A stretch of DNA of 64,000 nucleotides, taken from the sequence record NC_054933.1; one strand, written 5' to 3'. A program made the position numbers and the translations under genes. Positions 22,204 to 29,687 of the stretch are shown piece after piece (positions within the stretch are counted from its first letter, which is position 1; every line of letters begins with the position of its first letter). The DNA is from Escherichia phage teqhad. The notes below the pieces were generated by a model. The model was not told the DNA's origin. It saw only the letters and a program-made list of their open reading frames with translations, and ran no database searches.

Positions 22204-22257
22204 TCCTCATGTTATGCCAGTAAGACTACTATAACACAACACGAGGGACTTGTAAAC
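22204..22257 (-). repeat. 54-bp early promoter/leader repeat, copy A
   Basis: About 92 percent identical to 38018-38071 from promoter through RBS. Confidence 0.7.
22228..22257 (-). promoter_or_regulatory. early promoter GTTTAC-N18-TATAGT
   Basis: Minus strand GTTTACA, 18 nt, TATAGT; drives alt.-3-position ORF. Confidence 0.55.
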
Positions 22258-24314
22258 TACATTTTGAACTTTTTAGACATTCCGTTGATGTTAACCAAAG
22301 AAGCCAAGATTTGAGAAACTTCGTTTTCCTCTTCTTTTGATTCTTCTACAAGGAATTGATTAAATCCAGCCATTGGACGAACTTCACCAGTTTCCATTAG
22401 ATGGTCGCCATCATATACCGATTCCTCTAATTGTTCAGAAGGAGGAACGATTGTACCTTCTATTAGATACTTGTTATAAGCAGTTTCTTTCATAAAGTAC
22501 GTGCTCACTTTATTAATCTTCAGTAAAATTCCACGCGGTAGAATAACTTCAGCTTCTGATGGAAATCCTGATAAATGACCTGGAACGATAACTTTGATTC
22601 GCTCAGCTCCTTTAATTACCATACCCACGCTAGTTTCAGCATCTTCATTAGCATATGTAGAATGACTACCCATATGCATCAAATCTTCTGCATCAACGGA
22701 ACCTTCTCCTTCGCCAGAAAATACTGCGCCGGAATCATCTAGAGCCATATAGTTTTTACCGTGCTCACCGAAAATATTTGGTTTAAGCGATGTGGATACG
22801 AAGTTCTTGAAATAGAACATTTTGTTTTCAATATTATGACGCAAAGTTTTAAAGGTAACTTCTTGTCCACGGTAAAGTGTAGTTCCTGGAGGAAGAACTG
22901 AACCTTTAGCGAATGCAGAATCAAGCGTCTCGATGTGTTTAATAGCTCGTTCCATATATTCTTCACGGGTAGAATCTGGTTTACCCAAAAGGAACGAGTT
23001 CATTTCAACATATGAATCTGCACAATAATCTTCAATTACGTCAGATTCAGCCTGAGTTAATCCTTTTGGAGTTACTTCAGTACTTGCATATTCATATGCC
23101 TGAGCGGCAGATTCATTAATCAATTTATAAATGCCATTCATGACAAATTGAATAATAGCTGTCTTTTCATCTGGCGTAGCTTTAGAACCTTTAGCTAAAT
23201 CATTGACAATTTTCTTAATAACATCAAAACTATTAGAAATATTAATATCAGCAAGATCGCTTAAAATTTTATCAGTTTTATAATCAAAGAATTCTTTATT
23301 CTTTAAATATTCTTGAGAACCTTGATATGTTATATCGCTCTGCAGCTTGATAGATGGATCGCGTAAACGTGCATGGGCCAATGCAATATGATTTCGGAAG
23401 TTTTCTAGTTCATAATCGTTAGATTTAAAACGAGAAGCACTTCTCATACCACCGATAGCTCCTTTGCTAAAGTTTGAACCAATCTGAATAACGCCAGAGT
23501 TCATCGGACCTTCTGCTTTATATACCGGAACTTTAGATTCAAACTCTTGATATTTCTTAGCAGCGAAGCTATCACCCTGAAGTGAAGCATCAACAGTAGA
23601 ATATTGAGCTTGTGCTGCTAATCGACGACTAATTTTAGTTTTCTGAATAACAGCTTGATCCGTGCGCTTATCATTTTCTAAAGCAATAGAAGCAGCAACA
23701 GCGACAGCTTTAGGAACAGCATTACCTGTTTTAACGTCTACATAAACATCACCAACCTTTGATTCAACTTTTGTGAATAACTCAGTTGAAATAGGAGGTA
23801 CACCTGGAATGTCTTCTAAATTGGCATTTTTACGGTAAACCATAATATATGCATATTTCTTATCATAGTCCCAGATTTCCTTTAAAAGAACATATCGACC
23901 TGCTCCTTTAGTACGTACTAAACGGTCAGCAATAACTTGCATTTGACGAGCTGCGCCATTTGTTTTACTTTTTAGTACGCGGAATAGGCATGCGTCGATT
24001 TTATACTGTTTCATTGTTTGAAGAGCAGTATCAAAAACAGCATTAATGACGCCAATTGGATTTCCACCCAAGTTTCTAAGCTTGACTAACGATAATTTCT
24101 CGTTGACACCTATCATTACGATATGCATCATTTTGTCGCCTGGCTTAACGTTTTTATTTGTATCACCGCCAGAGGTGTATGTACAAAATCTAAATCCAGG
24201 AAGAACGCTTTCTTCACCGGCTTGAATAGCAAAAATTTGTGGTATTTTATGCTTAGGATTTAAGTTAACAACCGGCGCCGAAGCGCCGTCAAATAATTCT
24301 GTAATAAGTTCCAT
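22257..24314 (-). CDS. Alt-like ADP-ribosyltransferase paralog (alt.-2 position)
   Basis: 685 aa; N-terminus MELITELFD..NLNPK.KIPQIF shared with Alt; C-terminal R (LYRGQ), STS (FVSTSL) and E (SEAEVILPRG) ART-type motifs. Confidence 0.8.
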   Translation of the reverse strand: MELITELFDGASAPVVNLNPKHKIPQIFAIQAGEESVLPGFRFCTYTSGGDTNKNVKPGDKMMHIVMIGVNEKLSLVKLRNLGGNPIGVINAVFDTALQTMKQYKIDACLFRVLKSKTNGAARQMQVIADRLVRTKGAGRYVLLKEIWDYDKKYAYIMVYRKNANLEDIPGVPPISTELFTKVESKVGDVYVDVKTGNAVPKAVAVAASIALENDKRTDQAVIQKTKISRRLAAQAQYSTVDASLQGDSFAAKKYQEFESKVPVYKAEGPMNSGVIQIGSNFSKGAIGGMRSASRFKSNDYELENFRNHIALAHARLRDPSIKLQSDITYQGSQEYLKNKEFFDYKTDKILSDLADINISNSFDVIKKIVNDLAKGSKATPDEKTAIIQFVMNGIYKLINESAAQAYEYASTEVTPKGLTQAESDVIEDYCADSYVEMNSFLLGKPDSTREEYMERAIKHIETLDSAFAKGSVLPPGTTLYRGQEVTFKTLRHNIENKMFYFKNFVSTSLKPNIFGEHGKNYMALDDSGAVFSGEGEGSVDAEDLMHMGSHSTYANEDAETSVGMVIKGAERIKVIVPGHLSGFPSEAEVILPRGILLKINKVSTYFMKETAYNKYLIEGTIVPPSEQLEESVYDGDHLMETGEVRPMAGFNQFLVEESKEEENEVSQILASLVNINGMSKKFKM

Positions 24315-24317
24315 GAT

Positions 24318-26411
24318 TTATCCTTGAACGAACTTGTAAGGCATGTTTGTAATATCTATGCAAGACGCAATAATTCCAAGAGATGATTCTACTTTCTGTT
24401 TAACGTTTGATGAAACAAATGATGCAAAGTCAACTCTGTCTTCTATTTCAATATCACCTGTCATTGCAACCAATTCACCAGTTTCCATTAAATGGTCTCC
24501 ATCATAGATTACCGATTCGGTGAGCTCTTCCGTGGTCATAACTTCAGCTTGAATGAGTTTTGTATTATTAGATGTTGTTCCGTCATTATTAGAAGCATCA
24601 GTTATTTTATTAACTTTGACCATCAATCCACGCGGTAGAATAACTTCAGCTTCTGTTGCTATTCCGAGACTTCCTGGATATACAACATTAACTTTATGAG
24701 CTCCATCAATTGCCCATCCTATTTGAACTTTAACGTATTCAGGATTTTCTTTATACGCTCTTATTTCGTTTGGATTAATAGTTATTCCTTCTTCATTTTT
24801 ATCAACTGTTAATTCATTGCGAGCTTCTGGTTCTAAAAGACCAATACCAGCATGTGTAATTCCAAAACGTCCAAAAATGATAGGAGTTAAAGAAGTAGAT
24901 ACAAAATTTCTGAAGTAGAACACTTTATTTTTAACTAGTGCTTCGTATATAGGAGCAGTCATACTTTGAGCACGATAAACTGTAATGCCTTCTGGTATAC
25001 GGTCACCATTTTCAAAAGCTGAATCTAAGTTATTTATAGCAGATTCAATTTCTTTTTCACTCATTACATCATATCGTTCTGGATTGTAACGACCTAAAAG
25101 AAGATTATTAATGTCAGTATATCCTGAACCACAATATTCTCTAATACCTCTCTTTTGTGATGGAGTATATTTAGAACCATCACGAGCGATTGTAATATCA
25201 ATCATAGGACCAGCTCCTACGCCAGAGAAACTGTATATCATTCGTTTGAGGAATTTAGTTTTTGCTGCGTTCCAGGAATTTTTAGTTATTTCTTCCCAGA
25301 CTTCATCTGGTTGTCCTTTACGATTTTTATTATGATTAGCAAGCCATTTATCTTTATAATCTTCAAAGAATTGATTTACAGCTGCTGCGTATTTCTCTAA
25401 ACATTTTATTGAAGTAGTTGGTTCATTTTTAATTGCATTAAAAATTACTTCTTTAATTTTTTCTGAAACTTCACCGACTTGACTCATTGGAAAGAATTTA
25501 TAATCATAGTGAAGTTCATCTGCCGTTCCTTCAGCAATAATTTTTGCTGCCTTTGTTTTAGAAGCTAATGAATTAATTCCAATTTTCATTTCTTCTGCTT
25601 CGGGAATTAAAGGTGCAGTAGCTGGTTTATTAAAATTAGCTGCTGTAGATTCATACTTCTGGAATAATTCACTTTCAAATCTAGAAGATTCCAATGACTG
25701 GCTTTGTGCAATTGCTCTACGGGAAATTTTAACTTTAACGATTACAGCTTGGTCAGAACGTTTATCATTTTCTTGTGCAATAGATGCTGCAATTGCCTCA
25801 TTTTTGGTTACTTGGGCTCCAGTATCTTTATTGATATAAACATCACCGACTTTCGATTCAACTTTAGTAAAGAGCTCGGTACTAATTTCCGGAACTCCTG
25901 GAATGTCTTCTAGTGATACATTTTTACGATGTATAAGAATATATGCATACTTTTTATCGTAATCCCAGAGTTCCTTAAGAAGGACGTATCTGCCACCTGA
26001 ACGACTACGGATAAGTCTATCAGCAATAACTTGAATTTGTCGAGCTTGACCAGCGGTTTTAGACTTAAGAATACGAAGCATACAAGCATCAATTTTATAT
26101 TGACGCATTGTTTGCATTGCAACAGTAAAAACTGAATTGATATAATTAATTGGGCTTGGACCAAGACCTTTTAATTTAGCAATTGAACCTTTAGCAGTTA
26201 ATGTAAAAGGAACGATATGCATCATTTTATCGCCCATTTTTAAATCGCGATTAGTATCACCTCCAGATGTATACGTGCATAAACGAAAGCCTGGTTGTTC
26301 AATTGCATCATCAACATGAACTGAAAAAATTTGTGGTATTTTCTTCTTTGGATTTAAGTTTGTAATCGGAAGAGTAGTATCTTCGTCAAATAATTCTGTA
26401 ATGAGTTCCAT
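24318..26411 (-). CDS. alt: Alt, head-packaged ADP-ribosyltransferase
   Basis: about 697 aa from second ATG (GAGGA upstream); R (VYRAQ), STS, E (TEAEVILPRG) motifs; late promoter on minus strand at 26435-26442. Confidence 0.88.
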   Translation of the reverse strand: MELITELFDEDTTLPITNLNPKKKIPQIFSVHVDDAIEQPGFRLCTYTSGGDTNRDLKMGDKMMHIVPFTLTAKGSIAKLKGLGPSPINYINSVFTVAMQTMRQYKIDACMLRILKSKTAGQARQIQVIADRLIRSRSGGRYVLLKELWDYDKKYAYILIHRKNVSLEDIPGVPEISTELFTKVESKVGDVYINKDTGAQVTKNEAIAASIAQENDKRSDQAVIVKVKISRRAIAQSQSLESSRFESELFQKYESTAANFNKPATAPLIPEAEEMKIGINSLASKTKAAKIIAEGTADELHYDYKFFPMSQVGEVSEKIKEVIFNAIKNEPTTSIKCLEKYAAAVNQFFEDYKDKWLANHNKNRKGQPDEVWEEITKNSWNAAKTKFLKRMIYSFSGVGAGPMIDITIARDGSKYTPSQKRGIREYCGSGYTDINNLLLGRYNPERYDVMSEKEIESAINNLDSAFENGDRIPEGITVYRAQSMTAPIYEALVKNKVFYFRNFVSTSLTPIIFGRFGITHAGIGLLEPEARNELTVDKNEEGITINPNEIRAYKENPEYVKVQIGWAIDGAHKVNVVYPGSLGIATEAEVILPRGLMVKVNKITDASNNDGTTSNNTKLIQAEVMTTEELTESVIYDGDHLMETGELVAMTGDIEIEDRVDFASFVSSNVKQKVESSLGIIASCIDITNMPYKFVQG

Positions 26412-26434
26412 CATATCCTCTCTAGTGTTTATTC

Positions 26435-26447: not shown

Positions 26448-26465
26448 AAAGGCCCGAAGGCCTTT
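26448..26465 (-). terminator. stem-loop upstream of alt late promoter
   Basis: AAAGGCC-CGAA-GGCCTTT. Confidence 0.55.
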
Positions 26466-26652
26466 AATAATCTATTGGTAAGAGAGTACGATATATTTCA
26501 AACTTTGGACCTTTTTCATAGGCATCAAATGTTTCTGTGAATTTATTATAAGCATATGCATCTATAAATTCAATCATGATTTGTGATACAGAAGTAGAAA
26601 CATCTCCACCTTCTTTTTGAGCCACGACAATTGTTTCTAAGTAAGCTTTCAT
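26464..26652 (-). CDS. hypothetical protein between gene 30 and alt
   Basis: 62 aa ORF overlapping the gene 30 stop. Confidence 0.55.
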   Translation of the reverse strand: MKAYLETIVVAQKEGGDVSTSVSQIMIEFIDAYAYNKFTETFDAYEKGPKFEIYRTLLPIDY

Positions 26653-28112: not shown

Positions 28113-28378
28113 TGTTCATCCTTTAGAGTTTGGTTTACAGCTCTATTATAAATCAATTCATCATTAAGCTCAGTCAAAGACCTGTGGTACGTGGTTCTAA
28201 CTTTATTTCCTTGCATCCAGTGCTTGACGTAAATGAAACCTTGCTCTACACATTTTTTAAAAATTCGTTCGTCTTTTTGAGCTCGGAATTCTGGATTGCA
28301 TCTAAAAAATTGATTTACGTGACCGTAATCACGTGTAGTATTACCTTCATTTTCATAAATAGTATGAACAACAAACAT
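28109..28378 (-). CDS. hypothetical protein (30.1 position)
   Basis: 89 aa ORF overlapping the gene 30 start. Confidence 0.6.
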   Translation of the reverse strand: MFVVHTIYENEGNTTRDYGHVNQFFRCNPEFRAQKDERIFKKCVEQGFIYVKHWMQGNKVRTTYHRSLTELNDELIYNRAVNQTLKDEQ

Positions 28379-29226
28379 TAGAATGCTCCTTGGAAAATAT
28401 TATCACCACTAGTAATTCTATTAAAATACCCTGTGTCACCAGGCTTAATATAACTCCATGTATGGAATGGATGCATCTGATGTGAGTGCGTATAATATGG
28501 ATGATATGGATTATAAGGATTAAATCCAGGAGTTCTCCAGGTAGTGTTCCAACGAAAAGAATCGTTTTTAATCATCTTTTCAATTACATCTTTTATAGCT
28601 TTTTCACTATCAAAACTTTCTTTATTTTCCTTTGGTGGAAAAAGCTTATTCTCTACATCATTCCATGTATAAACTCGCTGAGCGGTTTTTGGAATACTGT
28701 CACGCTCCCCTCGAGCCATCCAATAAACAGGAACATTTAATATTTCACTTGCATGATCGCAGTGGTGAGCGAGATCGTCAATATAACAAATTACGTTATA
28801 TTTCTCTTTTGCCTTTTTGAACAACTCTTCTTTTGAAGAATCATGACCACACATCATTACTTCTGAGAAGGCACCAGGAAAAAGAGCATTCAAATTAAAT
28901 TGGCGATTCAGCAGAGCGTCAATAGAATCACCCAATGCTGTAACAGCTACAAAATTATAATCTTCTTTTAATTTGTTAATTACACACAGAGCATCTTTAT
29001 ATGGAGACAAGTAACGAATAAAATCTGATCGATTGTATTTTTCAATTAACTTGACGCCAAGTTCTTCATCACAGTTAAAGAGTTTACCAGGAGAAATAAA
29101 TTTCTCATCCTGGATCATTTTTAAAATATGTTCTAACGGAAGATTATATTTCTGAGCAAAATAAGGAAGGCCTGATTGCCAGCTTAAACATACTCCATCA
29201 ATATCAGTTAAAATAGTAGGCTTCAT
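28378..29226 (-). CDS. HAD-like putative nucleotidase/phosphatase with P/Y/H-rich C-terminal tail (30.2 position)
   Basis: 282 aa; N-terminal DIDGV motif (HAD DxDG); tail NPYNPYHPYYTHSHQMHPFHTW. Confidence 0.65.
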   Translation of the reverse strand: MKPTILTDIDGVCLSWQSGLPYFAQKYNLPLEHILKMIQDEKFISPGKLFNCDEELGVKLIEKYNRSDFIRYLSPYKDALCVINKLKEDYNFVAVTALGDSIDALLNRQFNLNALFPGAFSEVMMCGHDSSKEELFKKAKEKYNVICYIDDLAHHCDHASEILNVPVYWMARGERDSIPKTAQRVYTWNDVENKLFPPKENKESFDSEKAIKDVIEKMIKNDSFRWNTTWRTPGFNPYNPYHPYYTHSHQMHPFHTWSYIKPGDTGYFNRITSGDNIFQGAF

Positions 29227-29687
29227 AGAGAGTCTCTTAATAGGTTTAACACATCAATAAATTCAGCTTCGGTTAGTATTGTATCATCTTTTGTTAGACC
29301 ACTAGCCATGCTGTGCTTCAAAACTTTTCCTTTCGAGGCTTGTAATGCATCACGAAAGCCCTTGTTTTGGATTGCTGCTTCAAAATATGCATTTGTGTAT
29401 AATTCTTTCCACGCCGGGGAGTATCTTGAAAACGGAACTCCAAGCCAAAAGAGGGTCCCACGGTCCTGAGCTCTTGCATAAGACCTTCCAGCTTGTTGGG
29501 CGGCAAGCCCGGATAACCCAAATATACGACGTTGTTGTTCAACATTTTTCACCTTGCACCCTTGGAGGAATCCTTCAAGACCTCCAAATTGAATACCATC
29601 CATAACGAAAGGCCATTGGGCGAAATTACTTAATGCGCATGATGGCCATCTAAAATTACTTCTAATCTCTAACTCAGACATTTTCAA
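29223..29687 (-). CDS. hypothetical protein, possible NADAR/YbiA-like fold (30.3 position)
   Basis: 154 aa; motif ...LSNF..WPFVMDGIQFGGLEGFLQGCK... recalls NADAR N-terminus (recalled, not searched). Confidence 0.6.
   Translation of the reverse strand: MKMSELEIRSNFRWPSCALSNFAQWPFVMDGIQFGGLEGFLQGCKVKNVEQQRRIFGLSGLAAQQAGRSYARAQDRGTLFWLGVPFSRYSPAWKELYTNAYFEAAIQNKGFRDALQASKGKVLKHSMASGLTKDDTILTEAEFIDVLNLLRDSL

Follow-up and report, generated by a model that had tools for sequence, protein, structure and literature searches.

An intact adfN gene in a T4-like Tequatrovirus, encoding a NADAR enzyme predicted to counter DarTG1

Introduction

What is encoded by the small open reading frame that lies close to the genes for DNA ligase and two ADP-ribosyltransferases in a 64,000-nucleotide stretch of phage DNA (the window), and does its product defend the phage or regulate the phage's own modification enzymes? 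The initial annotation had noted a NADAR/YbiA-like signature in this frame and had proposed either counter-defence against DarT(G) or regulation of phage-driven ADP-ribosylation. NADARs hydrolyse guanine-linked ADP-ribose and serve as DarT1 antitoxins (Schuller et al., Mol Cell 2023, PMC11543638); the assignment of the family goes back to de Souza & Aravind (2012), cited in Schuller 2023 (PMC11543638). Here we conclude that the open reading frame is almost certainly adfN, an intact NADAR enzyme of a T4-like Tequatrovirus that, judging from its sequence, would counter DarTG1. Both the identity of adfN and its counter-defence function are already known, having been published in 2023-2025, and the result is nothing new to biology; what changes is that a "hypothetical protein" of the window becomes a named counter-defence gene.

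Identity and extent of the open reading frame

The minus strand of the window is open from 29223 to 29687, and the translation of this frame includes LSNFAQWPFVMDGIQFGGLEGFLQGCK. A mechanical call, in which the first TTG is taken as the start, yields the 154 aa of the initial annotation. In the T4 record, however, the orthologous gene begins at an ATG six bases (two codons) downstream of the TTG. Because the T4 record starts at this ATG, and because the published numbering of E36 and K43 fits only the ATG, we placed the gene at 29223..29681. The open frame and its motif were thus real, whereas the length had to be corrected to 152 aa, and the two additional codons are probably not translated.

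29223..29681, minus strand: adfN (T4 gene 30.3) coding sequence, 152 aa plus stop, predicted phage-type NADAR DNA ADP-ribosylglycohydrolase
29682..29687, minus strand: extra codons TTG AAA upstream of the ATG, added by the mechanical call

The start codon of adfN, ATG, shares bases with the end of gene 30.4 (ATGTCTGA), and its stop codon runs into the start of gene 30.2 (ATGA). Such tight packing is usual for the T4 string of early and middle genes. The frame is far from a chance one: the protein matched Pfam PF08010 (Phage_30_3) with E=2.3e-70 and 235 bits against a cut-off of 36, over profile positions 1-138 of 138, it matched PHROG 652 with E=1.3e-51, and 645 phage records hold at least 80% of the open reading frame at 80-99% DNA identity. 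Compared with T4 gene 30.3, the identity is 98.3% at the DNA level and 99% at the protein level (151/152 residues). Seven of the eight nucleotide differences are synonymous, and the sole residue change is at position 125, two residues from His123, where the window has Met, the family consensus, and T4 has Ile. By these sequence comparisons the open reading frame is an ortholog of T4 gene 30.3, published as adfN (anti-DarT factor NADAR).

Genomic context

On the minus strand, from low to high coordinates, the genes run as follows: the second Alt-type transferase, alt, alt.1, 30 (ligase), 30.1, 30.2, the open reading frame under study, 30.4-30.9, rIII and 31. This order equals that of T4T gene for gene and is also that of 19 related loci; the window comes from a T4-like phage (Tequatrovirus). 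It is not T4 itself, because the second alt paralog is intact here and is broken into alt.-1/alt.-2 in T4. The flanking features to which the text refers are these:

22257..24314 and 24318..26414, minus strand: tandem, intact pair of Alt-type ADP-ribosyltransferases, 685 and 698 aa, both PF03496 (ADPrib_exo_Tox)
26464..26652, minus strand: alt.1, between alt and the ligase gene, matching Pfam PF24647 "Phage blade protein" with E=7.5e-29
28378..29226, minus strand: gene 30.2, 282 aa, its start overlapping the adfN stop (ATGA), predicted NT5C-like hydrolase of the HAD superfamily
29278..29303, minus strand: stretch of 26 bases identical to the one annotated as middle promoter PM30.2 in T4 record X53848, putative promoter
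29318..29545, minus strand: T4 gene 30.3', a 75-aa open reading frame embedded in another frame of adfN according to the T4 records, open here

The window phage retains the full second Alt paralog. The distance of the frame from the transferase pair, which had been given as three genes, was roughly right, although four genes (alt.1, 30, 30.1 and 30.2) intervene. No darT1 toxin gene was found adjacent to adfN, whose neighbours are 30.4 and 30.2. The nearest ADP-ribosyltransferases are the Alt-type pair four genes away, and adfN is an orphan, as published.

In relatives the block comprising alt, ligase, 30.2 and adfN is kept down to about 41% identity. At 41-46% identity adfN, 30.2 and ligase occur together without 30.4 to 30.9, and the adjacency of adfN and 30.2 holds down to this same range while the genes upstream of adfN are variable. 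In three loci (L019-L021) alt is inverted relative to adfN. The small gene alt.1 is absent from some relatives that retain both alt and ligase (L008, L011, L012, L018-L021).

The stretch identical to PM30.2 lies inside the 3' part of adfN and reads into 30.2. A scan for sigma-70 promoters and terminators around the gene gave counts near the shuffled expectation and nothing usable. We also considered 30.3' as a second, conserved gene product. Among 13 related loci the ATG of 30.3' is frequently replaced (by ACG, ATT or ATC), and nearly all nucleotide changes alter 30.3' while sparing adfN; in one example, 40 nucleotide changes amounted to 11 aa in adfN and 29 aa in 30.3'. A conserved product of this frame is thus unlikely, and 30.3' is probably not a conserved gene.

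Fold and family membership

Single-sequence searches fell short of linking the protein to NADAR, and the link required a profile, a structural model or family members that bridge the two. In Pfam the window protein matched PF08010 and noise only, with no match to PF08719 (NADAR) at E<=1, and a phmmer search of the single sequence against the PDB returned only an irrelevant match (E=0.61). Membership in NADAR at the sequence level therefore rests on the comparisons of profiles and structures. The family profile, run against all PDB sequences, placed YbiA first with a weak score (E=0.055) and an alignment covering the motif. When a deeper profile (176 domain hits) was compared with YbiA by hhalign, the probability rose to 94% (E=1.2e-7, 107 columns), and this alignment runs through LSNFAQWPFVMDGIQFGGLEGFLQGCK, in agreement with the motif given in the initial annotation. 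Bridging members were also found: among 76 diverse representatives, all of which match PF08010, 13 matched PF08719 as well at E<=0.001, the best at 1.2e-6 and all below the gathering score where shown, and the catalytic Glu and Lys vary little or not at all.

The comparison with YbiA by structure prediction, which had been named as a check, pointed in the same direction. An AlphaFold model built on ten family sequences had a pLDDT of 82 and a pTM of 0.82. When the model was compared with solved structures, E. coli YbiA was the best match, and Foldseek returned the same top three. Taken together, the profiles and the model support the assignment of the window protein to the NADAR/YbiA superfamily as a stand-alone enzyme of 152 aa with a predicted NADAR fold; the missing PF08719 match reflects Pfam's treatment of the phage clade as a family of its own.

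The extent of the family depended on the search. Only 22 close relatives came from a word-indexed search for homologs, whereas an exhaustive search of representatives gave 1451 clusters at 50% identity, far broader than the T4-like phages. Among the best 150 of these 1451 clusters, which were those examined, P0023, P0025, P0026, P0037, P0111 and P0024 illustrate two kinds of architecture: some members contain two or three tandem gp30.3-type NADAR domains, and in others the NADAR domain is joined to LRR_5, ASCH, DUF6939, GDSL lipase, alpha/beta hydrolase or membrane (FtsW/RodA, Lgt) domains.

Catalytic residues and the C-terminal helix

The residues that matter for activity in the published work can be located in the window as follows:

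29553..29633, minus strand: N-terminal NADAR signature, residues 17-43 (LSNFAQWPFVMDGIQFGGLEGFLQGCK), with N19, E36, Q40 and K43, aligning to YbiA FSNFAAWPIKVDGKTWPTSEHYFQAQK
29574-29576, minus strand: E36 codon
29553-29555, minus strand: K43 codon
29313..29315, minus strand: His123 codon, residue of the phage subfamily in the last active-site strand, invariant in all alignments
29226..29270, minus strand: C-terminal helix, residues 138-152, intact and identical to T4 (helix 138-151 in the model)

The Glu and Lys of YbiA SEHYFQAQK are the counterparts of E36 and K43 in the alignment, and these two residues also match the ADP-ribose-contacting Glu and Lys of NADARs (E43/K50-type in PnNADAR; E88/K95 in E. 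coli C7 NADAR). E36 and H123 do not vary among 31 loci, in which position 43 is K or R. In T4 AdfN, E36A and K43A reduce counter-defence, and E36A is inactive in vitro (PMC11825919). H123 lies in a strand predicted by the model at 120-123, and a His at this place is the mark of the phage NADARs, the YbiA family having Glu and the DarT1-linked family Asp (PMC11125620, PMC11543638). At the C-terminus, phage RB69 has lost the last 15 residues to a frameshift, which makes it DarTG1-sensitive, and the truncated protein is less active (PMC11825919). The window allele has every one of these activity-linked features, including the C-terminal helix.

Predicted function and alternative explanations

The counter-defence function that had been proposed for the open reading frame has been demonstrated experimentally for the T4 protein, from which it differs by one residue (PMC11825919, PMC11125620, HIDEN-SEQ preprint). 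Purified T4 gp30.3 removes guanosine-ADPr and not thymidine-ADPr in vitro, and it gives no protection to uninfected cells from DarT1 (Cihlova 2024, PMC11125620). The resistance of T2 and T4 to DarTG1 was mapped to gene 30.3, which was renamed adfN (Johannesman, Awasthi, Carlson & LeRoux, Nat Commun 2025, PMC11825919). T-even phages need adfN to resist DarTG1, and the gene suffices for this resistance, as shown with the T4 and T2 alleles; T4 AdfN cleans DarT1-modified DNA in vitro and does not bind DarT1 (PMC11825919). In a transposon screen of T4, according to the text of the HIDEN-SEQ preprint (2025), insertions in 30.3 were lost only on DarTG1 hosts; this same text and PMC11825919 describe adfN as dispensable on E. 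coli K-12 and essential only with DarTG1.

In the mechanism established for the T4 protein, DarT1 of the host DarTG1 system ADP-ribosylates guanines in phage DNA and so blocks replication. AdfN hydrolyses the N-glycosidic bond between ADP-ribose and guanine in the DNA, the adducts disappear and the phage can replicate. Acting on guanine and not on thymidine adducts, AdfN does not counter DarTG2. Because the window protein is essentially identical to T4 AdfN, we infer that the window phage would resist DarTG1. Transfer of the function from T4 AdfN to the window allele appears safe, although it proceeds by comparison of the two proteins. If it holds, the phage is predicted to plate on DarTG1-carrying E. 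coli, which would be useful in choosing or engineering therapeutic T4-like phages. The picture of a free-standing antitoxin is nevertheless incomplete, because T4 AdfN fails in uninfected E. coli and barely helps T5 or Bas25, its full activity being seen only in T-even infection (PMC11825919).

With respect to the T4 NADAR construct, the methods of PMC11125620 give "gp30.3; residues 1-208", compared with 152 aa for both T4 gp30.3 and the open reading frame; the greater length could be due to tags or to a different accession.

Three other explanations can be set against counter-defence by an intact enzyme. The gene could have as its main job the regulation or reversal of the phage's own ADP-ribosylation, carried out by the two Alt-type transferases or by ModA/ModB, which we consider extremely unlikely. 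Two intact Alt-type transferases do lie 3 kb away, the block from alt to adfN persists down to the low identity given above, and the NADAR genes of T4-like phages are expressed early, together with the transferases (Iyer et al., PMC9503650). The whole region is syntenic in T4-like phages, however, and nearness to alt therefore carries little weight; the suggestion of a regulator in the initial annotation found no support, since its position by alt and ligase reflects ordinary T4-type synteny. Alt of T4 modifies proteins on arginine, whereas T4 gp30.3 was found to act on guanine-ADPr in DNA and to be inactive on thymidine-ADPr. The dispensability of adfN without DarTG1 on E. coli K-12 and the inversion of alt relative to adfN in L019-L021 also argue against a regulatory role. 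The main target could instead be soluble ADP-ribose derivatives, such as immune signals or by-products of RNA repair, or small metabolites of the YbiA type, with activity on DNA being secondary. In its favour, the best structural match, YbiA of E. coli, carries an N-glycosidase annotation, the 1451 clusters with their many fused domains seem to be spread more widely than DarTG1 alone explains, and a role on soluble ADPr derivatives was predicted from genomic context by Iyer et al. (PMC9503650). As a second activity such a role may exist, and it would fit the great size of the family. As the main function we nevertheless regard it as very unlikely, given that direct genetics and biochemistry link the T4 protein to DarT1-modified DNA and that the phage subfamily is not known to act on any small molecule. 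Furthermore, the His123 variant is specific to the phage clade, and the chemistry of YbiA is therefore not simply transferable.

That the window allele might be a decayed, non-functional copy, as in RB69, deserves mention because broken alleles do exist: besides the RB69 frameshift with its loss of 15 residues (PMC11825919), there are a deletion in L015 and several truncated database entries (P0007, P0015 and P0016). In contrast, the window copy retains its full length and every conserved residue, and I125M, a change to the family consensus, is its sole difference from the active T4 protein. A pseudogene reading was rejected at the sequence level, and we hold it to be virtually impossible. The reading that we prefer thus remains an intact adfN acting in counter-defence. 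The broken alleles themselves (L015, RB69 and the truncated P0007/P0015/P0016) suggest that adfN may have been lost or inactivated repeatedly in T4-like phages. In L015 (6001..6342 of IMGVR_UViG_2974741249_000001) residues 9-41, among them the SNF motif and the catalytic E36, are deleted in frame.

A possible partnership with gene 30.2

Johannesman et al. invoke an additional T-even protein for the full activity of AdfN only in T-even infection (PMC11825919). We considered whether AdfN and gp30.2, the product of the translationally coupled downstream gene, form a two-enzyme module in which gp30.2 is this protein. Several lines point to gp30.2 being an NT5C-like HAD hydrolase resembling 5'(3')-deoxyribonucleotidases: the N-terminus contains an invariant DxD motif (D8, D10), and homologs are named 5'(3')-deoxyribonucleotidase or HAD hydrolase in some sources. 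Pfam gave no match for gp30.2 at E<=0.01, its PHROG matches, to polynucleotide kinase and to a heptose-phosphate enzyme, were weak, and a search of the paper collection for "gp30.2" gave no result.

In some proteins from other viral contigs (P0034, P0040 and the open reading frame of L031) a gp30.3-type NADAR domain is followed at the C-terminus by a Pfam NT5C domain, an arrangement that parallels adfN and then 30.2. This gene fusion, together with the neighbourhood, suggests that NADAR and NT5C-HAD enzymes may cooperate. A phmmer search with gp30.2 against the fused family members found nothing, the comparison of the gp30.2 profile with the P0034 C-terminus by hhalign was weak (62% probability, over HAD motif I only), and the profile did not match P0149. 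The link to the fused NT5C domains therefore rests on a shared fold and family rather than on demonstrated orthology.

T-even phages rebuild their DNA from the nucleotides of the degraded host chromosome. A nucleotidase could therefore clear ADP-ribosylated dGMP while the NADAR enzyme clears adducts in the polymer, although this division of labour is a matter of reasoning only. Against such a module, adfN occurs without 30.2 within 6 kb in nine distant loci (L022, L024, L026-L033 except L025), and the text of the HIDEN-SEQ preprint (2025) names only adfN as lost on DarTG1. On balance we consider it unlikely that the two proteins form this module. If they did, the pairing of NADAR and NT5C-HAD enzymes would offer a candidate explanation for the T-even dependence of T4-type AdfN.

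Relation to characterized NADAR enzymes

The closest known system is T4 AdfN (gene 30.3, PMC11825919), with which the window gene shares its neighbours, the overlaps at start and stop, the catalytic residues and the C-terminal helix, the differences being confined to M125 in place of I125 and seven silent changes. The NADAR antitoxins associated with DarG1/DarT1 (BC4488 family; E. coli C7, Geobacter lovleyi 8bat; PMC11543638) are more distant in several respects. The window gene is an orphan without darT, and its protein has His123 and about 150 aa, whereas the DarG1-type enzymes have a catalytic Asp in the last strand and about 190-220 aa; moreover, T4-type AdfN cannot replace DarG1 in uninfected cells. 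E. coli YbiA (PDB 2b3w) belongs to PF08719 (NADAR/DUF1768), a Pfam family separate from the PF08010 of the window protein, and has Glu at the third active-site position where the window protein has His. Its gene belongs to a host operon under LexA control, and the protein gives no protection against DarT1 (PMC11125620). AdfN-Bas32 and AdfN-Bas60, from T5-like and Vequintavirinae phages, resemble the window protein in being orphan phage NADARs that counteract DarTG1 and act specifically on guanine adducts, but they were acquired independently from other branches of NADAR (PMC11825919). They also neutralise DarT1 without infection and function in unrelated phages; the T4 type, in contrast, reaches its full activity only in T-even infection (PMC11825919).
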